This document shows, piece after piece, positions 2,713 to 30,185 of a stretch of 64,000 nucleotides of DNA. Numbering within the stretch: the first letter of the stretch is position 1; each line of letters opens with the position of its first letter. The notes below the pieces were generated by a model. It was not told the origin of the DNA. It ran no database searches and saw only the letters and a list, made by a program, of their open reading frames with translations. The stretch is from contig CAVZZO010000003.1 of assembly GCA_963779755.1 (NCBI GenBank), positions 512,001-576,000 on the forward strand, written 5' to 3'. Made by a program: the position numbers and the translations under genes. The DNA is from an uncultured Gemmatimonadales bacterium (GTDB taxonomy: Bacteria; Gemmatimonadota; Gemmatimonadetes; Gemmatimonadales; GWC2-71-9).

Positions 2713-4012
2713 TCAAGGTCGCGTTACCGTCCATATTGTCCCTGCAGTCCCGTGTAGGCCGGTAAGCGTCCAAGGTGAAACTCCAGACGAGCCTGTCGGT
2801 ACTGAGAATGCACCAATCATATCGTCGTCGTTAGTGCTCCGCCAATCGAGTATTGCATCGACGACCCAGCCGGCGACAATAACTGGCAGCGGTAGGCAGT
2901 TCTCTGTGCACCTGATCCACGAGACAGATACATACACGCTCACCGTTCCAAGATATCCATAGAGCCTCTGAGTTGAGGCATCACTTGTCTCGAATGAGCA
3001 CTTCGATCCATGGTCATCCTCCCAGACAATCCCGCCAACCTTGCCGCCGCCAAGGATCGCATTCGCGATGTCAAAATTGGCCCCGATCTGGACGATGCCG
3101 GTCCACAAATCATGGTCCTGGTTGAAGTAATAAGGGGTGTACAGGTCCTCGTTTGCGCATCCCAAAGTGATCGTGTGCCCCACCGAATCCGCAGCGAATA
3201 CCATGATCGCAACTTCGGGCGATCCCCGCAGCCAGCCCTCATACTGCGACACGTTGGCAATGTTCATCTTACACGCCAGCAGCTTGGCCCCGGTTGGTGT
3301 CGGCGGGCAGGGATCCTCCGGAGGCGGGTCCCCACCGCCTCCCCCACCTCCACCGCCTCCCCCGGTGCAGTCGTCTAGGTCAGGGGGACACGCATCTTGC
3401 GACTGGGGCCTGATCAGGGACTCACGTGCCGCGGCGAAGTCGACCTCTGATGGGAGGACCGCAATGACTGGCGTGATCGGAGGAGATCTCGGATCCAGTA
3501 CGTAGCGATGGCCTTTCGTATCGAACGCCACGGGCGCCATTCCATCGCGAACTGCCGTCGCCACGAGTACATTGTCATCACCGGCCCATTGTGCGCGATG
3601 CGCTGGGATCGGGAGGTAGACCTCGCGTGAGCTGTCCAGCGTCACCGCTGCAGAGAACTGTTCCGGTGTGGAATTGTCCGCTGCGGCGACCGCCTTGAGC
3701 GCAAGAGCGGAGGCAGACTCCAGTAACGGCTTCAACTCGACCTTGCCCTCTCGTAATGGAGATTCTCGGAGTCGGGCATGAACCACCGATCGCACATCGG
3801 GATTAGCAAGAGCCGAAGCAAGCGCTTTAGCGAGACGCTCGAGCTTGGCTTCTTCAACTGTTTCGGTGGGTGTTAGTGTGCGAGGAACTGCCGGTGCGCG
3901 ACTAACTGTCTCAGGTGTCGGCCCCGTTGATTGCTGATGTTCGGCCTCGCAACCTGCCGATATAATCGAGGCGGTGAGCCCCCCCCCAAGCTACCAAGCT
4001 TCGCAGGCGCAT
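2713..4012 (-). pseudogene. Secreted lipoprotein, DUF3103-like, frameshifted in a G9 tract
   Basis: AGGAAAAC-ATG at 4012. Deleting one G of the G9 run (C9 at 3979-3987 on +) gives MRLRSLVAWGGLTASIISAG-C fused to the 2713..3795 ORF. YEGWLRGSPEV resembles DUF3103; Gly11 linker. Confidence 0.65.
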
Positions 4013-4517
4013 GTTTTCCTTCTCGCTATGGAAAGGCGTAAACAGCTGGACGTATCTTGGCAGACAATGTTCTTAATCGAAGGTGAAAGGAGCCTGAAGG
4101 TCTGATGAGAGTATCGGGCTGTACGCCACATACGACCGAGCCTAGAGCTAGACTTCACACTCCAGATGCGTGGCACGCGGTTTCACGAATGTCGCACTAT
4201 TGTTGATATCATCTCGATATGTGACGTGTGGACCTAGAGAATGTCGCCTACGCCCGTCACATCCATCCCTAAGCGGCATGCCGAACCATGGGTGTGAGTG
4301 TCCCAGAAGCGGCGCGGGAGCCGGTTGCTCTCGGCCTCGCCCGGAGCTTGATTGTCGCCGGATACGCCGCTTGGGCTGAGCCGTGGCCCCTTCACGCAAA
4401 CCCGTTCGCAGTGGCGGATGGCTCATTTCAGAGCGCGCCGCAATACCCTGCCGGTGGTTCTGCCGGAAGCCGACCGAGAGTGCAGCTACTCGAAGGAGTG
4501 TGGACGCGCGCGGCTTC

Positions 4518-23697: not shown

Positions 23698-24829
23698 CGA
23701 CGGCGTGCTCAACGCCCTGCTCGACGGCGAGCTGACCGGCGCGGAACGCGCCGAAGCCGACCGGCACCTCGAATCCTGCCAGGAATGCCGCGACCGACTG
23801 GCGGAAGCGCGGGCGTTCATGGCGGAGGCCGATGGGCTGGTGGAGGCGCTGGAAGCGCCTCCAGCCAGGGAGAAACGGGAAACGGGAATGGGGAAGGATC
23901 GAGACCCCGGAATTCGTCCCAGGCGGATGGACTACCGTGCTCTGGCCTGGGCAGCCACCGTGGTGCTGGCCCTGGGGCTCGGCTATGTGGGCGGCGCGCG
24001 TCTGCACCTGCCCGTCTCCCCGGAAGAACAGCAGGCCCTGGAGCAGCCCCGGCGGCAGGCGGCCGATCGCGCCGTCACTCCGGAGCACCGCGAGGCAGTT
24101 CCGCCCGCGGCGCCCCAGCCGACGACCGAAAAGGGAGCAAAACAGTCGGCCGTCGAGGTCCCCTCACCCACGCCCACGGCGGAAGTACCCGCGACCGCGG
24201 AGCCGGGGCAGCCCACTCAAGGGAAAACCGCGGAAGGTGCTCCGCGGGGAGACCTCGCGGTCAGCCCCGAGTCTCCCGCCGAGACCATCCTCAGTATCGA
24301 GAAAGGCCGCCGCGACGAGTCGGCCGCCTACATCGATGGCGTTCCCACCAGCGCGGAATACCGGGGCAACGCCTTCGCTCCCGCGCCGTCCGCGGCCGCA
24401 CGGGTACTGGCGCCCCGGGACCAGCTGGCCGGTGCCGCCCCCAGCGACGGAGGGCAGTTCCGGCGCATCACCTGGGATACCGCGATCACCGTGCTGGGCG
24501 GTGCGGTTCGGCTGATCGATGGCCTGACGCCGAACGAACTGGGCATGGCGGACGGCGGTGCCGTGGGGGGGTTTGAAACCGGCCGCCCGGTGGTGCGTAT
24601 CAGGTACCTGTTCGGGGGGCGGGATACCCTCGATCTGCTCGAACAGCGGCTTTCCGCAGTGCGGCAAGAACGCAAGACAGCCATGGATTCTGCGATGGTG
24701 CTGGCCGAGAGGGCCCTCCCGGGCGGGGGCTCGGAAGTCCGCTGGCGGGCACCGGGGGGCTTCCTACTCGTGCTACGGTCTGCACTTACGGCCGAAAGGC
24801 TGGCGGAGCTGGCCGCCCGGGTCAGGTAA
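23684..24829 (+). CDS. Zinc-finger (ZAS) anti-sigma factor with TM helix and periplasmic domain
   Basis: HLESCQEC (HxxxCxxC); TM LAWAATVVLALGLGY; overlaps the sigma factor stop. Confidence 0.88.
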   Translation: MQHLDDGVLNALLDGELTGAERAEADRHLESCQECRDRLAEARAFMAEADGLVEALEAPPAREKRETGMGKDRDPGIRPRRMDYRALAWAATVVLALGLGYVGGARLHLPVSPEEQQALEQPRRQAADRAVTPEHREAVPPAAPQPTTEKGAKQSAVEVPSPTPTAEVPATAEPGQPTQGKTAEGAPRGDLAVSPESPAETILSIEKGRRDESAAYIDGVPTSAEYRGNAFAPAPSAAARVLAPRDQLAGAAPSDGGQFRRITWDTAITVLGGAVRLIDGLTPNELGMADGGAVGGFETGRPVVRIRYLFGGRDTLDLLEQRLSAVRQERKTAMDSAMVLAERALPGGGSEVRWRAPGGFLLVLRSALTAERLAELAARVR

Positions 24830-24838
24830 GTCACGCTG

Positions 24839-24854
24839 TGGCGCGGTTTTCGCA
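24839..24854 (+). promoter_or_regulatory. Possible sigma-54 promoter
   Basis: TGGCGCG-GTTT-TCGCA (GG-N10-GC); near-match TGGCACG-TCGA-TTGGA at 24906. Confidence 0.35.
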
Positions 24855-25124
24855 GAGCAGGATTCACGTCGGATTTATCGAATTCTCATGCAGTCCACGT
24901 TACATTGGCACGTCGATTGGAGTAGTGAAAGGGCTGGAGCGATGGGCACCGTTGCAATGCGCAAGAAACGAATTTCTCCCTCGTTTTTTCGCGGGCCGGT
25001 GATATATTGTCCCTCGCTTTCTGGCAGGCCGTGTTTCTGACGCGGCCTTCTTTGTAGGGGTTGCAGGGGCCCCCGCGTGGGGGCGGGCAGTTCAAACACC
25101 ACCTTGACGCTGGAGGCAGTTGGT

Positions 25125-25703
25125 ATGAAGCGCATCATGACGGCGGTTGCTGCTCTGGCCCTCGTCTCACTGGCTGGCGCCGGCGCGCTTAACGCGCAGA
25201 CCCGGGCGAGCTTTTTCGTGAGCGGCGGCCTCACCAATCCTCTCGGGACCTTCAACGACATCGCGAAGCTCGGGTGGAACGGCCAGGCAGGCGTGCAGTT
25301 CGCCATGCCGAGCTGGCCGGTCGCCATTCGGGTGGACGGCATGTACGGCCAGAACACCACGGACAGCGCCGTACTTCCGGCCGGCGTGACCGGCAAAACC
25401 AAGATTTTCGCTGGCACGGGCAACTTGGTCTACCAGTTCAAGACCGCCAGCAACATCAAGCCCTACATCCTGGGCGGCGGCGGCGTGGCCAATGTGAAGG
25501 GTGAGGCGACCAGCGGCGGAACCACCTCCTCGGCCTCCGAGACCAAGGCGCTGATCAACGGCGGCCTCGGCATCAAGAGCGCCATGAGCGCGGTGGATAT
25601 CGGCGTCGAGGGTCGCATCTTCGACGTCTTCACCAGTGGCAACAGCACCACCTTCATCACCGTGAACCTGGTGGTCGGGTTCGGCGGCAAGGGCGGGATG
25701 TAA
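25125..25703 (+). CDS. Outer-membrane beta-barrel protein (OmpA/OmpW-like small barrel)
   Basis: GGAGG RBS, signal peptide, IRVDGMY, KPYILGGGG. Confidence 0.85.
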   Translation: MKRIMTAVAALALVSLAGAGALNAQTRASFFVSGGLTNPLGTFNDIAKLGWNGQAGVQFAMPSWPVAIRVDGMYGQNTTDSAVLPAGVTGKTKIFAGTGNLVYQFKTASNIKPYILGGGGVANVKGEATSGGTTSSASETKALINGGLGIKSAMSAVDIGVEGRIFDVFTSGNSTTFITVNLVVGFGGKGGM

Positions 25704-25719
25704 GTTCCGCTCCTCCGGG

Positions 25720-25760
25720 AACAGAACAGCCCCGCTTTCGCGGGGCTGTTCTGTTTTTTT
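25720..25760 (+). terminator. Rho-independent terminator
   Basis: AACAGAACAGCCCCGC-TTTC-GCGGGGCTGTTCTGTT followed by a T run. Confidence 0.92.
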
Positions 25761-25777
25761 AGCTGCCGGCGATGCCC

Positions 25778-26374
25778 TCAGAACCGGGCGCCCGGCCCCG
25801 AGGGCGGCGGGATATCACGGGTCGGCTCCGGCGGCTCGATGATGATGGGTACCGACGGCAGGGGCGGCAGCGTAGACTGGCCCGGCCGGCACACCGGGCG
25901 CTGCTCCACCACCAGCACCGAGTCGTTCCGGCGGGCCATACGCCCCTTCTGGCTCAGATGAACCGTCCGGGTGCCGATGGGAGTATAAATCACGGCCTGT
26001 CCGGAGAGGACATAGGGCAGATGGGGCGGCTCGGAGTCGGGCAGGCTCCGCAGGGTCGCCATGCGGAGCGCGAGCCGGGTGGAATCGCGCATGCCGAGGG
26101 TGAACTGGTCCTTGAAGACGCCGCTGGCCACCGAATCGCCCGCCAGCACCAGGGCGATGGTCAGATCGCTCCCCTGGATGCTGAAGTCGTTCCGGTTGCA
26201 ACTGGTGATGATGAGCCCCAGGGTGGGATGCTCCCCATTCCAGTCGGGGAGGGCCACCTCCGAGAGCAGAAACGTGGGATCGTCATAGAGCCAGCCCCCG
26301 AGCGGGGTACACCCCGGCAGGAAGAGCAGTAACAGGAGGCCCACATCCGCGGCCCGGCGCCTGGTAGCGGTCAC
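25778..26374 (-). CDS. LEA type 2 family lipoprotein
   Basis: Lipobox LPGC; CNRNDFSI (NPN-like) motif; YTPIG. Confidence 0.65.
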   Translation of the reverse strand: MTATRRRAADVGLLLLLFLPGCTPLGGWLYDDPTFLLSEVALPDWNGEHPTLGLIITSCNRNDFSIQGSDLTIALVLAGDSVASGVFKDQFTLGMRDSTRLALRMATLRSLPDSEPPHLPYVLSGQAVIYTPIGTRTVHLSQKGRMARRNDSVLVVEQRPVCRPGQSTLPPLPSVPIIIEPPEPTRDIPPPSGPGARF

Positions 26375-26627
26375 CCGGAGACTTTCGCAATGAGATCAGG
26401 GTTCGTGTCGCGGCGGCCTGTCGCAGCACGATCGAGGGCCAGACCATGGGGAGACGAGCCAAGGTTCGCCTACCGCACAGCCCACCGGCAGCGCAATGTA
26501 GCGCAGGACAGCCATTTACGGCATGGCCGAGGCGGGCGGGCGCGGGCGGGCGGGTGTCGCAATTCTGGTACACAATGTCGTAAAGGGGGACTTCAGCCGG
26601 GAGAGGAAAACGCCGAGTATAAGAGGG

Positions 26628-27977
26628 TCAGTCCAGTCCCGCCCCATACTCGGAGGTGTCCTCATGCTGCGCGCTCGCCCGCTGGTTGCTCTGCTCCTGG
26701 TCCTGTTGGCACTCGGGTCCTCGGCCTGCGCCGATGCGACCGGTCCCCGGCCCGACAATCAGCCCTGCACCGAAGGACAGGGAACCGCGGGCAGAACCTG
26801 CCAGTAGCACCTGGACATCGAGATCCACCGCGCACGCCCGCTCGTCTTCTGGCGCGGGCGGCGCGGGCGGTCCATTCGCTATTTCCTGCTCGAGCCGGAT
26901 GATCCAGGCGCCGAGCTCATGGGCTTCAGCAATCTGTATGGCGATGTTCCATTCAGCCTTCGCCTTCTCGTGGTCTCCGAATCGCCAGCACGCCAGCCCC
27001 AAACGATAGTGATAATCGGCGGCCATCGCGGGAGGCATCCGGTCCTCCCGGCCTTCGAGATTTCTGACCGCTCGATAGTATCCCAGGATATCTCCAGTGG
27101 TACTGCAGACGTCGAGCAACTCGATGGCTGCGTTGGTCTGGTCTCCCCAATCCGAGGACTCGCGCTGTACTCGGCGCAAAGCCACTGAAGCGCCACCCGT
27201 GCACCCCAGAGCACGAAGCATTCCGGCAAGGTTCCCCAGGGACCTCAACTCCTCGTCTTCGTTGGGGGCCAGACGGACGGCCTCCCAGTAGCTGATGGCC
27301 GCGTCAACCGGCCGGCCCCGGTTCTCGAGAATAGTGCCAAGATCGTTCACAGCTGCAGCCTGCAGGTCCGTAAAGGAATGTTCCCTGGCCTCGACGAGCC
27401 CCTCCTGCGCCAGTCGCATGGCCTCTGGGAGGTTGCCCCGGTACCGCAGCAGCATCACTCGCCCCAGCTTGGCCCTGATGGCTATCCACGGATCCGCACT
27501 GACCCGCGCCAGCTCCTCCACCTCCGCCCAGGCGGCGGCGGCTTCGGACCAGCGCGCTGCCTTGCGGTAGAGGCGGGCGCGCAGCAGATGGATCTGCACC
27601 AGCGCCCTGGCCGGAAGGCTCGAGCCGGCCCACCGCAATGCCGTGGCCGCCACGAGAAGCGCCGACGCTTCCTCGCCCCAGTGCTCCAGGGCGACGGCAT
27701 AGGCGGTGAGAGCGCGGGCGCTCTCGCAGGCATCGTCCTGGCGGGCGGCAACCGTCAGGGCGTGCAAATAGGGAATGTCGGGGTCGGACTCGGGAGCCGC
27801 GGCCAGCTCCTGGGCCAGCTCCTCGAGGGCGGCGAGGTCCCCCGGCGGGTTCCAGAGGAGCCGAAGCGCCAGGCAGGAAAGCGTCGCCCCCTGGGTCGGG
27901 GTTCGCTGCAGGCGCTCGAGCAGGGGAGCAATATCCTGCAGCGTCGGCCGCTCCGTCGCGGCGTGGCCGCCGGTCAT
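26628..27977 (-). CDS. Tetratricopeptide-repeat (all-helical) protein
   Basis: Repeated TPR-like units (LARLYRKAARWSEA, GNLPEA, NDLGTILENRGRPVDA, GNLAGMLRALG, YRLGLACWRFGDHEKA); no signal peptide. Confidence 0.8.
   Translation of the reverse strand: MTGGHAATERPTLQDIAPLLERLQRTPTQGATLSCLALRLLWNPPGDLAALEELAQELAAAPESDPDIPYLHALTVAARQDDACESARALTAYAVALEHWGEEASALLVAATALRWAGSSLPARALVQIHLLRARLYRKAARWSEAAAAWAEVEELARVSADPWIAIRAKLGRVMLLRYRGNLPEAMRLAQEGLVEAREHSFTDLQAAAVNDLGTILENRGRPVDAAISYWEAVRLAPNEDEELRSLGNLAGMLRALGCTGGASVALRRVQRESSDWGDQTNAAIELLDVCSTTGDILGYYRAVRNLEGREDRMPPAMAADYHYRLGLACWRFGDHEKAKAEWNIAIQIAEAHELGAWIIRLEQEIANGPPAPPAPEDERACAVDLDVQVLLAGSARGSLSFGAGLIVGPGTGRIGAGRGPECQQDQEQSNQRASAQHEDTSEYGAGLD
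26664..26807 (+). CDS. 47-aa lipo-prepeptide with C-terminal Cys pair
   Basis: GGAGGT RBS at 26652; MLRARPLVALLLVLLALGSSA-CADATGPRPDNQPCTEGQGTAGRTCQ. Confidence 0.75.
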   Translation: MLRARPLVALLLVLLALGSSACADATGPRPDNQPCTEGQGTAGRTCQ

Positions 27978-28243
27978 GCAGGCCGGCTGCCGCGTATGAA
28001 GACTGGGGCCGGCGGAGGGACCATGGCGCAATCTCCCGAATCAGGAAGCGCGTACCCAGGCAAGGCGGGCACGGCAGTCGCCTATGGAGTTAACCTCTGA
28101 ATTGGGGACGCGCCAGACCCTCCCCCCAAACGATGCACCCGCACGATTCCCGATCGCAAGCCGTCCGGGAGATCCTCCGGCCCTTCGCCGTTTGGGCGAC
28201 GAGAACGAAGATCTCCCGGACGCCCGCTACGCCTGCCGGCGGC

Positions 28244-28834
28244 TCAACTCCCCACTCGGACAGTGAAGTTCCCGTGGTCCAGCGGCAGGGGCTGCAGGTC
28301 TGCCCCGGAAGGGATGGTCCCCTGTTCACAGAAGTCCCGCCCCACCTGCGGATCTGCGTTCCGGAAGGCCAGCAGCTGGGTCGAAACGTCAGGGTCGGCG
28401 CTTGCCCCCGGACCGTTGTCGAACAACTCCATGGCAAAGGCCGTGTTTTCCATGAACGAAGAGCCGGCAGGTTTCACCTCCGAGACGAGCCCGGAGATCC
28501 TGGCCGAGTGGCCATCGGTTTCGATCGTGAGGCAATCAATCGGCCCGTGCAGGATGGTCGCGCCCACCACGATCTGCCATTGGCCGCTCACGCTGCCATC
28601 GGCCTGCTTGACGGCGGAGAAGCCAAAGGTACGCAACCCGAGACCGGGCGGAACGGGCGGCGGGAAGTATGTAATGTGCGCGCTGCCCGTCGCCGAGCCC
28701 GCCACCCCGGCGGCCCCCAGCGAGTTCACCGGCCGGCCGCCCAGGGCCGCATCCGGTGAGGCAGGGCCGAGCCGGTCGGATTGGCAGGCGGCAATCAGGA
28801 TCAGCAGCAATCCGGCGATTCCGATGTGCTTCAT
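28244..28834 (-). CDS. Hypothetical lipoprotein
   Basis: Lipobox LIAAC; beta-rich body; divergent from the AraC gene. Confidence 0.75.
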   Translation of the reverse strand: MKHIGIAGLLLILIAACQSDRLGPASPDAALGGRPVNSLGAAGVAGSATGSAHITYFPPPVPPGLGLRTFGFSAVKQADGSVSGQWQIVVGATILHGPIDCLTIETDGHSARISGLVSEVKPAGSSFMENTAFAMELFDNGPGASADPDVSTQLLAFRNADPQVGRDFCEQGTIPSGADLQPLPLDHGNFTVRVGS

Positions 28835-28966
28835 GGCGCTCGCTCCCGCGTCTGGTAGGAAGGCCGGGCCGGCAGCGGCCCGTCATGCTTCCTGCCACGG
28901 TACCTGGCTGACGGCGGGGCTCGCTACCAGAATCTTGCTCTGCCCGGGAAAGGTGGAGGCCGGACC

Positions 28967-29887
28967 ATGAAGCCGCTGGACTGCTATCCCACACCGCTCG
29001 ACCGGGTCCTCCTGGCCACGGACCTGGTGCGTATCGGCGCGTTCCGCGCGCCGGTGGACCACCCGCTGTTCCCCGACTCCGGCCCGATCTCCGATCCCGT
29101 CTTCGTGTTTCCCCGCACCAGTGTGGAGATCCGGCATGAAGGGGAGCGCTGGTTCACGGCCGACCCCTGCACCGTCACCTACTACAATCCGGGCCAGCGG
29201 TATACCAGGCGGGCCCTGGATCCCAGGGGCGATGCCTGTGACTGGTTCGGTCTCCGGCCGGATGCACTCATGGAGGCGCTGGCCTGCGCCGATCCCGCGG
29301 TGGCAGAGCGGCCCGACCGGCCGTTCACCTTCAGCCACAGCCCCTCCGATTCTCAGACGTATGCCCTGCAGCGGCTCATCGTACGGCACCTGCGTGAGGC
29401 GCCGGTTCCCGACCCTCTGGTAGTGGAGGAAGCGACCTTGCACGTGCTCGCCAGGCTGCTGGAATTGTTACCGCTGGTCTGGCGGGTCAGCGGCCAGGCG
29501 CCAGCGAGGCGAGGGGAAGGTTCTCTGGCGCGCGGCGTCCGGACGCATCTGTTGCGGCACCTGGGGGAGACCATGTCGCTGGAGGAGATTGCGGGGGCGG
29601 TGGGATGTTCGGTGTTTCACCTCTGCCGCGTCTTCCGCCGGGAGACGGGAACCACCGTCCACCGGTATCGCCAGCAGCTGCGGCTGCGCCGCTCGCTCGA
29701 GCTGGTAGCGCAGGGGCGGGCGGACCTGAGCCGGGTGGCATTCGAGCTGGGGTTCTCCAGCCATAGCCACTTCTCTTCGGCCTTCGCCGGGACCTTCTCC
29801 ATGACGCCGTCGGAGTTCAGGCGGCAGGCCAGCTCCCGCCGTATTCGGGAGCTGGCTTCGCAACTGGAATTGCCGGTGGCGGGCTAG
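28967..29887 (+). CDS. AraC family transcriptional regulator
   Basis: SLEEIAGAVGCSVFHLCRVF; VAFELGFSSHSHFSSAF..TPSEFR. Confidence 0.94.
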   Translation: MKPLDCYPTPLDRVLLATDLVRIGAFRAPVDHPLFPDSGPISDPVFVFPRTSVEIRHEGERWFTADPCTVTYYNPGQRYTRRALDPRGDACDWFGLRPDALMEALACADPAVAERPDRPFTFSHSPSDSQTYALQRLIVRHLREAPVPDPLVVEEATLHVLARLLELLPLVWRVSGQAPARRGEGSLARGVRTHLLRHLGETMSLEEIAGAVGCSVFHLCRVFRRETGTTVHRYRQQLRLRRSLELVAQGRADLSRVAFELGFSSHSHFSSAFAGTFSMTPSEFRRQASSRRIRELASQLELPVAG

Positions 29888-29930
29888 AGCCGGAGGCGCA
29901 GAATGGAAGAGCCGGTCTGACAGACCGGAC

Positions 29931-30185
29931 TCAGGCGCGGGAGGATCCCCAGCCGGGTTCCTGCTGGGGCAGCAAGCGCCAGATGAAGCGTTCGCGGAGA
30001 TCTTCCGGGGTATCCGTAGGCTTGCCCAGCCCGGGGAGCACCCACTGCCGCCCCTCGCCCGTCACCACCCATTGCAGCTCAAATCGAGTGGCCAGCCCGC
30101 GCCAGGACCCGGCCCGCCACAATTCGGCGCGATAGGAACGTCCCGCGAGCTGGAAGGTCATGGCTGCGAGAACGGCGTCGTGCAC
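29931..30185 (-). CDS. Small hypothetical protein
   Basis: AGAGGT upstream of a GTG start; globular-looking 84-aa product filling the gap. Confidence 0.5.
   Translation of the reverse strand: MHDAVLAAMTFQLAGRSYRAELWRAGSWRGLATRFELQWVVTGEGRQWVLPGLGKPTDTPEDLRERFIWRLLPQQEPGWGSSRA

Follow-up and report, generated by a model that had tools for sequence, protein, structure and literature searches.

What does a 47-codon open reading frame (ORF) encode when it lies wholly on the opposite strand of a longer gene, and is its product tied to that of the gene that covers it? The question arises in a 64,000-nucleotide (nt) stretch of DNA from an uncultured Gemmatimonadales bacterium (contig CAVZZO010000003.1, positions 512,001 to 576,000; hereafter the window, with coordinates counted from its first letter). 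Here a plus-strand ORF at 26664-26807 converges on a minus-strand gene for a tetratricopeptide repeat (TPR) protein and lies entirely within its 3' end (26628-27977), an arrangement first noted in a sequence-only reading of the window and borne out by our analysis. Judged from comparative sequence evidence, the small ORF is a genuine, conserved gene for a pre-peptide of about 45 amino acids (aa) with a predicted Sec-type signal peptide. Together with the TPR gene it forms a deeply conserved pair in Gemmatimonadota, with its own conserved putative operator and its own regulators in most loci.

The small ORF is a conserved peptide gene

The ORF runs from the ATG at 26664 to the TAG at 26805-26807 and encodes the 47 aa MLRARPLVALLLVLLALGSSACADATGPRPDNQPCTEGQGTAGRTCQ. 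The product has a basic n-region, a hydrophobic core and A-x-A ahead of a cysteine (Cys22, preceded by S-S-A), and it ends in a loop, C35-x10-C46, followed by Q47 as the last residue. The sequence-only reading had described the ORF with a GGAGGT ribosome-binding site, an upstream TATAAG, Cys22 and the C35/C46 loop, and we found each of these in place. The elements of the gene are as follows.

26664-26807, plus strand: gene for the 47-aa, putatively exported Cys-loop pre-peptide (homology, motif and codon substitution pattern)
26652-26657, plus strand: Shine-Dalgarno sequence GGAGGT, 6 nt ahead of the peptide ATG
26664-26726, plus strand: predicted signal peptide of the pre-peptide
26727-26729, plus strand: codon of the invariant Cys22
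26730-26747, plus strand: conserved ADATGP
26748-26765, plus strand: linker
26766-26801, plus strand: C35-x10-C46 loop
26802-26807, plus strand: Q47 and TAG

All codons of the peptide are exact reverse complements of codons of the TPR ORF. In high-GC genomes such a codon-for-codon antisense frame is often open by chance (a 'shadow' ORF); the GC content of the window is 68.6%, and the base composition by codon position does not separate the peptide and TPR frames over 26660-26840. Given an aligned antisense frame and a high GC content, the ORF alone is not beyond chance expectation, and it is because of homology and synteny that we judge it to be more.

A profile built from seven peptides found 436 proteins at E<=0.01 among 979 candidates. 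The 120 members listed of these 436 are mostly 41-46 aa long; wherever a name is given it is 'hypothetical', and the two named NCBI records both come from Gemmatimonadales metagenome-assembled genomes (MAGs). The family pattern consists of a signal peptide, A-C-A-D-A-[ST]-G-P, a variable linker, a Cys loop and one residue. Exactly three Cys from the lipobox-like Cys onward, a C-x7-C loop and Ala at −1 occur in 120/120 of the members listed. Within the loop, position 1 is Asp in 119, position 4 is Asn in 102 and position 7 is Thr or Val in all 120; a single basic residue (H, K or R) closes the C-terminus in 105. Cys22 is invariant across 106 aligned peptide sequences, and six columns of the signal peptide (L10, V13, F15, A16, L17 and A19) are near-invariant (at least 90%). 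The C-x10-C loop to which attention had been drawn is real in the window, but it is a divergent variant of a family whose norm is C-x7-C.

The substitution pattern is that of a coding sequence under constraint. Among the DNA sequences of seven peptide genes, the ratio of nonsynonymous to synonymous substitution rates (dN/dS) ranges from 0.19 to 0.96, staying below 1 in all 21 pairs; differences at third positions outnumber those at second positions in 20 of the 21, and the codons of the invariant Cys, Asp, Gly and Pro residues differ synonymously (TGC or TGT for Cys). A single copy of the motif [AGS]C[AS]D[ATS][ATS]GP is present in the 64-kb window and in each of six of seven distant loci found with the TPR protein (described below), always at the position of the peptide; it was not found in the seventh, L006. 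Homology, synteny, dN/dS and the 436-protein family thus all support the earlier proposal that the small ORF is a gene.

A search among longer proteins gave five matches, four of them upstream-extended ORF calls and one a read-through, and the peptide module therefore stands alone as a micro-protein. No Pfam or NCBIfam model matches the peptide, and no literature on the family was found under Gemmatimonadota small lipoproteins or TPR proteins, or under quorum sensing or small ORFs. In P0097 and P0276-P0279 the peptide ORF has been called from a far upstream start, giving annotation artefacts of 81-120 aa. P0280 (84 aa) runs 38 residues beyond the usual stop, an extension that may reflect a stop-codon change or a sequencing error.

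The loop of the family, C-D-x-[NS]-N-[PS]-[NV]-T-C, carries Asp, Asn, Ser/Pro and Thr on alternate positions, a pattern reminiscent of cation-binding loops. The loop of the window peptide, TEGQGTAGRT, does not have this pattern. N-glycosylation sequons in the loop were considered and dropped.

Cys22 had been described as part of a lipobox-like site. It does follow S-S-A, but the motif is non-canonical, with a small residue rather than L, V or I at −3; across the family this residue is A, S or T. We applied a classic and a permissive lipoprotein rule. The classic form, [LVI][ASTVI][GAS]C, is matched by one of 111 short members, which is not the window peptide, and the permissive PROSITE-type form by all 111, the window peptide included. 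The A-x-A before Cys22 fits a signal peptidase I site equally well. Cys22 may be lipidated; the invariant Cys at +1 and the odd number of Cys speak for it. Beyond the clusters of the family itself, the neighbours of the peptide in a protein language model are YhfL/DUF4223 (0.80), colicin lysis protein (0.79) and LPAM_1 (0.78), which serve as leads only.

The peptide gene and the TPR gene stay together while their surroundings change

A genome scan with the TPR alignment gave seven loci (L001-L007) in Gemmatimonadota/Gemmatimonadales MAGs, one of them titled only 'uncultured bacterium'. Over the full alignment, identity between their TPR proteins and that of the window is 28-31%. A check of the flanks of TPR homologs for unannotated signal-peptide ORFs ending in C-x(n)-C, as had been suggested, was positive: a convergent small ORF of this kind adjoins the TPR gene in six of the seven distant loci, at gaps of 1, 5, 6, 8, 22 and 144 nt. 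Each of the six encodes a basic start, a hydrophobic stretch, A-C-A-D-[AT]-[ATS]-G-P, a short linker, C-x7/8-C and at most one further residue, and in all six the peptide gene stands free of any TPR ORF. Four of the six peptide-bearing loci have a gap of no more than 8 nt, and five a gap of no more than 22 nt. Gaps of 8 nt or less leave no room for a terminator, from which we infer that the convergent transcripts must overlap.

The wider context is also shared among the peptide-bearing loci, with several neighbour genes common to five of the six. Transcribed divergently from the peptide gene is an operon that encodes an AraC-type HTH_18 protein whose N-terminal half is receiver-like (6/7 loci), and in four of the six the same operon also encodes a single-domain CheY-like response regulator and a MerR-like protein (ORF listing). 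Genes for LemA and an M48 peptidase follow in several loci. A divergent gene for a GspH-like pseudopilin lies upstream of the TPR gene, together with genes for an HD-GYP response regulator, an epimerase and YceI, although individual loci lack one or another of these. In the stretches covered in L001-L005 and L007, some 4 kb to either side of the TPR gene, no histidine kinase gene came to light.

None of these other neighbours adjoins the pair in the window. There the flanks hold, on one side, a LEA_2 lipoprotein, a beta-barrel outer membrane protein (OMP) and a zf-HC2 anti-sigma factor and, on the other, an unrelated AraC gene and a lipoprotein of unknown kind; beyond these, the window consists of ordinary chromosomal DNA. 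The TPR and peptide genes thus stay together while the context changes, which is the strongest argument for their mutual dependence. The divergent TPR protein of the window is coupled with a divergent peptide loop (C-x10-C).

Nesting is a by-product of a lost stop codon

The TPR ORF extends on the minus strand from the ATG at 27977 to a stop at 26628-26630 and encodes 449 aa, or 467 aa when read from the TTG at 28031. The public protein set holds exactly the 449-aa form (P0001). By comparison with its homologs the ORF divides into two parts.

26793-27977, minus strand: core of the TPR protein, residues 1-395 (AlphaFold2 model, Pfam and homolog ends)
26628-26792, minus strand: read-through tail, residues 396-449 and the stop, antisense of the peptide gene and its 5' leader

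All distant TPR homologs end in EVSASLAxL plus one to six residues, aligned with AVDLDVQVLLAG in the window (about residue 394), the exact point at which the peptide gene ends on the opposite strand. TPR proteins of the window's clade run 35-55 residues further. The tail is present in P0001, P0002, P0003 and P0182; P0004-P0006 and the proteins of the seven loci do not have it. In the AlphaFold2 (AF2) model its predicted local distance difference test (pLDDT) values are 42-67.

Substitutions in the tail follow the peptide frame. For the three closest proteins, amino-acid differences attributable to codon position 1 versus position 2 number 46:51, 43:48 and 55:39 in the TPR body and 7:0, 12:1 and 10:2 in the tail (one-sided Fisher tests of the three pairs give p = 0.007, 0.002 and 0.085). 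Position 1 of the TPR frame is position 3 of the peptide frame; it is therefore the peptide frame that is constrained, and the tail drifts along with it as a shadow. Each of the four clade members has a tail compatible with C-A-D-[AST]-[ST]-G-P on the antisense strand; among 40,676 residues of 96 family proteins only six sites are compatible in this way, four of which are these tails. The antisense peptides of P0002, P0003 and P0182 are deduced from the protein tails alone. The tail frame stays open because the peptide gene has no TTA, CTA or TCA codons.

The nesting is therefore a clade-specific, derived by-product of the loss of the TPR stop codon and not an ancestral design. The ancestral feature is the very tight convergence of the two genes. 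The sequence-only reading had described the peptide as encoded antisense inside the TPR gene; by the homolog ends, the substitutions and the low pLDDT, this arrangement is no design feature of the system. The locus offers a clean natural example of how the loss of a stop codon can make a gene over-print its convergent neighbour. In the window genome the peptide gene sits inside a longer ORF, where gene callers cannot report the peptide.

A conserved direct repeat upstream of the peptide gene

We aligned the 200 nt upstream of seven peptide genes. GGAGG precedes every ATG. Some 65-90 nt upstream of it a 21-nt unit, ATGCCGCAAAAnCGCCCTAnn, is repeated in tandem, with two copies or, in some loci, three. 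The window has the core of this repeat at the same spacing, TGTCGCAA-N13-TGTCGTAA. The following candidate signals surround the peptide gene.

26555-26583, plus strand: direct repeat resembling an operator, TGYCGYAA-N13-TGYCGYAA, with two 21-nt units; it ends 81 nt before the ATG of the peptide gene
26618-26623, plus strand: TATAAG, a −10-like hexamer, with GTTGG at the aligned place in relatives
26828-26866, plus strand: GC-rich hairpin within the TPR coding region, 21 nt past the peptide stop; a weak candidate for the terminator of the peptide transcript

Even with one mismatch allowed, TGYCGYAA-N13-TGYCGYAA has no second occurrence in the window (0.01 expected). It occurs exactly, once each, in five of the seven loci and with one mismatch in L005; L006 has none. 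The upstream-extended ORF calls in the databases (P0097, P0276-P0279) translate the repeat as CRKxALRCRKNAL, and its presence in several entries indicates that the upstream repeat is widespread. Direct repeats spaced one or two helical turns apart are typical of binding sites for AraC-type or response-regulator-type proteins. A reading of the repeat as a sigma-54 or extracytoplasmic function (ECF) sigma factor promoter was dropped for misfit of the spacing, judged by eye only.

The TATAAG that had been proposed as a promoter element is present, but the relatives show no conservation there. A consensus promoter scan of 26200-28300 gave no sigma-70-type sites, and a terminator scan of the same interval gave one terminator-like site where 1.0 would be expected. 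For the fold of 26800-26900 z is −1.87, with 8 of 200 shuffled sequences folding at least as stably, and the counterpart of the hairpin has z = −4.33 in L004 and 0.0 in L001. No clean U-tract was found at the hairpin at 26828-26866.

The TPR protein has the shape of a peptide-binding receptor

The TPR protein matches Pfam TPR_2 (28.8 bits against a cut-off of 27) and has no signal peptide. NCBIfam gave only far-sub-threshold TPR matches (MamA, PorW, AfsR). Its closest relatives are P0002 (63% identity) and P0003 (60%), weaker ones being 33-36% identical, and the family numbers 357 representatives at E<=1e-30 and 2,924 at E<=1e-10. In 101 family members Pfam found TPR-type families only (TPR_12 in 86) and no helix-turn-helix (HTH) or enzyme domain, in agreement with the initial description of a TPR-like protein that has neither an enzyme nor a DNA-binding domain. 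AF2, run with a 101-sequence alignment, models the core as an all-alpha solenoid of about 20 helices (21 with a tail helix), with pLDDT above 90 for residues 5-395; the model has a mean pLDDT of 90.4 and a predicted template modelling (pTM) score of 0.84. The N-terminal 100 or so residues, the place of an HTH domain or of the Rap three-helix bundle in RRNPP receptors, are helical in the model.

A Foldseek search of the PDB returned 58 chains at E<=1e-3. The TPR domain of LGN/Pins has the best E-value (6e-6) and takes ranks 1-13 except rank 7, with template modelling scores (TM-scores) of 0.32-0.45 by query. The highest TM-scores belong to Rap-pheromone complexes (8rst, 8rsv, 4gyo and 6t46), at 0.48-0.49 by query and 0.58-0.59 by target; whole-chain alignment with Rap gives 0.49/0.59. 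MalT domain III is also among the matches. In a sequence-profile search of the PDB the matches listed include OGT, LGN, kinesin light chain and designed TPRs, LGN being the best among natural proteins with a full TPR array. The TPR protein thus has the size and shape of a peptide-binding TPR receptor, Rap in particular, but is not demonstrably a homolog of one.

The GC content at third codon positions (GC3) of the TPR gene is 0.82-0.93 in the 5' half (27380-27980) and 0.65-0.72 in most of the 3' half (26900-27380). The drop could reflect relaxed selection or past recombination.

The pair may work like Rap and Phr

Systems of a TPR receptor and a secreted pro-peptide are placed by two papers (PMC10075063, PMC9765709) in Gram-positive Firmicutes and their mobile elements. 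PMC10075063 describes an operational signature of RRNPP systems, used as five points by RRNPP_detector: a small propeptide, a secretion signal, a receptor of 250-500 aa, TPRs, and adjacency of the two genes. It gives propeptides of 10-100 aa (21-50 aa for validated ones) and gaps between reference receptor and propeptide genes of −50 to 191 bp. Against the signature in this form, the pair fits on propeptide size (47 aa, most of the members listed having 41-47 aa), on the receptor (449 aa with TPRs) and on adjacency (1-144 nt in six loci, nested in the window). For the secretion signal there are the basic n-region, the hydrophobic core and A-x-A, and the permissive lipoprotein rule is passed by 111/111 short members.

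As the best reading of these data we tentatively propose, by analogy, that the peptide and the TPR protein work as a Rap-Phr-like regulatory pair, a possibility to be taken seriously rather than a probable account. The likeness is one of layout and shape: a pre-peptide of about 40-50 aa with a secretion signal adjoins an all-helical TPR protein of about 380-450 aa that has no DNA-binding domain, the highest TM-scores come from Rap-pheromone structures, and genes of receiver type lie on the flanks of canonical loci. Rap proteins likewise have no HTH and act on receiver-domain proteins. In this scheme the peptide would be exported and processed; a lipidated Cys22 may first hold it at the membrane, with the C35-C46 disulfide closed. 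The TPR protein would read the abundance or the processing state of the peptide and, because it has no DNA-binding domain, would act on a receiver-type regulator. In canonical loci this regulator could be the adjacent AraC-HTH protein with its receiver-like N-terminus, the neighbouring CheY-like protein, or both; in the window it would be encoded elsewhere. The regulator would bind the direct repeat and drive the peptide gene, closing a feedback loop, and the convergent, overlapping transcripts might add antisense interference as a second layer of control.

Several observations weigh against this proposal. No sequence homology to RRNPP receptors (Rap, Rgg, NprR, PlcR, PrgX, AimR) was found with Pfam, NCBIfam or PDB profiles, and among 60 of the 72 PDB sequence-profile matches only generic TPR proteins, and no RRNPP protein, appear. 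A TM-score of about 0.5 with a root-mean-square deviation of about 10 Å is usual between long TPR solenoids. The genes are convergent, and those of Rap-Phr are co-transcribed. The host is a diderm of the Gemmatimonadota, and Rap-Phr is a system of Bacillus (Firmicutes), phages and plasmids. ADATGP and the Cys loop, as conserved parts of the peptide, would be extracytoplasmic and the TPR protein cytoplasmic. No oligopeptide permease (Opp) was seen among 40 of the 50 candidate ORFs of the window or among seven proteins searched against Pfam, nor among 21 neighbour proteins (7+14) within about 4 kb of the pairs in the loci. The RRNPP signals known are short, linear, unmodified peptides, neither lipobox-bearing nor disulfide-capable; those of Rap-Phr are linear penta- or hexapeptides, in contrast to the invariant lipobox-like Cys and the Cys loop here.

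Three further points concern the genomic evidence. For the AraC-type protein of the loci, neither tblastn against the window nor BLASTP against the AraC gene present there gave a homolog. In L006 the TPR gene (3224-4489) is followed by QueF and QueC and has neither a peptide gene nor the upstream repeat; it may be a paralog that left the module. The divergence of peptide and TPR protein is correlated (r = 0.82 over 21 non-independent pairs), as a test of co-variation proposed earlier would have it, but shared descent alone would give this, and the correlation is no evidence of co-evolution. A complex prediction for TPR residues 1-395 with the 47-aa pre-peptide scored 0.02 against a mark of 0.32, without controls, and counts neither way.

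The RRNPP-like layout suggested by the sequence-only reading thus finds backing in the signature, in six of seven loci and in the Rap TM-scores, but the sequence relation, an HTH and a nearby permease are all missing and the genes are convergent. Since homologous membership of RRNPP was not found, we file the pair as one that works perhaps like such a system and not as a member of it. LGN/Pins (GPSM2), the best hit by E-value, shares a peptide-binding TPR superhelix of similar length, but it is a eukaryotic polarity protein and the resemblance is that of a generic TPR_12-type solenoid.

The general form of the proposal, which we consider unlikely as it stands, is that the diderm Gemmatimonadota use an independently arisen Rap-Phr-like communication or feedback system in which the pre-peptide has a lipobox and a disulfide loop and a TPR-only receptor controls a pseudo-receiver AraC-type regulator. 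If true, it would be the first RRNPP-type logic outside the Gram-positive world. In a bolder variant, the conserved signal peptide itself, released in the membrane after cleavage, would be the cytoplasm-facing ligand, by analogy with enterococcal pheromones derived from lipoproteins. If the pair signals, peptide communication would be opened up in a common and poorly studied soil phylum; if it does not, the peptides still make up a new micro-protein family with a sharply conserved Cys loop.

Alternative readings of the pair

The main rival, in our view somewhat doubtful, makes the peptide an envelope micro-lipoprotein, the output of a regulon, with a disulfide-closed and possibly cation-binding loop (D-x-N-x-[SP]-x-T); the TPR protein would be a co-regulated cytoplasmic adaptor that never touches the peptide, and the linkage would reflect only co-regulation or control by convergent transcription. 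Such a role suits the invariant Cys right after the signal peptide, the exactly three Cys that leave two for one disulfide, and the passing of the permissive rule by 111/111 short members. It needs no import step and so fits the absence of a permease, and the canonical loci are rich in regulators and in envelope genes (GspH-like pseudopilin, LemA, M48 peptidase, YceI). The language-model neighbours beyond the family, again as leads only (0.78-0.80), are small lipoproteins. With colicin lysis proteins, YhfL/DUF4223 and entericidins the peptide shares a precursor of about 40-50 aa and a mature part of about 25 residues that starts with Cys. Yet no Pfam or NCBIfam small-lipoprotein model matches, ADATGP and the C-x7-C loop are specific to this family, and the lipobox is non-canonical: one of 111 members has the classic form, and A-x-A fits signal peptidase I too. 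This rival also leaves unexplained why only the TPR gene stays with the peptide gene across contexts.

A second rival, distinctly unlikely, is a secretion-coupled partner switch in the manner of IpgC-MxiE or SicA-InvF. The TPR protein would hold the pre-peptide before export; export would drain the pre-peptide, and the freed TPR protein would co-activate or release an AraC-type regulator that binds the direct repeat. The pairing of a TPR chaperone with an AraC-family activator is a paradigm described in PMC3299695 and PMC10701871, the latter presenting class II type III secretion chaperones as small, with about 3.5 TPRs. In six of seven distant loci the genes for three such parts do adjoin (an AraC-family HTH_18 protein, a TPR protein, a small exported protein), the signal peptide is unusually well conserved, and no re-import is needed. 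The TPR protein, however, with its 395-residue solenoid, is about 2.5 times larger, class II chaperones being small (about 150-170 aa), no type III secretion genes were seen among the window ORFs and locus neighbours scanned, and the window has no AraC-type partner. The strongest conservation of the peptide, moreover, includes the extracytoplasmic ADATGP and loop, needless for pure cargo.

That the peptide is a Sec-dependent bacteriocin or toxin, for which the TPR protein provides immunity or maturation, we regard as very improbable. A small size, secretion and a loop able to form a disulfide would suit the role, but bacteriocins are fast-evolving and patchily distributed, and here the chromosomal context (5/6 peptide-bearing loci) and the loop are highly conserved. 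No transporter, protease or membrane immunity gene is adjacent in the loci, and a cytoplasmic TPR protein is not a usual immunity protein. The toxin/immunity alternative raised at the outset finds no support.

Scarcely credible, finally, is a chance shadow ORF antisense to a genuine C-terminal extension of the TPR protein: the codon-for-codon antisense frame, often long and open in high-GC genes, and the uninformative codon-position composition would allow it, but six loci and hundreds of database entries have the peptide gene on its own, outside any TPR ORF, the ancestral TPR protein stops short of the tail, the tail changes fall on TPR position 1, which is peptide position 3, and the tail has a pLDDT of 42-67, so that the reading is refuted as far as sequence evidence reaches.

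Neighbouring features of the window

Directly upstream of the TPR gene and on the same strand lies a 196-aa ORF (28244-28834, minus strand) with a classic lipoprotein start, LILIAAC. It matches no Pfam or NCBIfam model, and in the loci the conserved module does not include it. On the other side of the pair, the OMP beta-barrel gene (25077-25703) and the LEA_2 lipoprotein gene (25778-26374) are convergent. A search of 24000-30000 against Rfam (E<=1) gave no match at the pair and only sub-threshold ones near 25700 and 29900. Several of these matches fall on both strands of 25680-25807 (RsmY, rimP leader and others; 20-25 bits), an interval that is most likely a bidirectional terminator hairpin.

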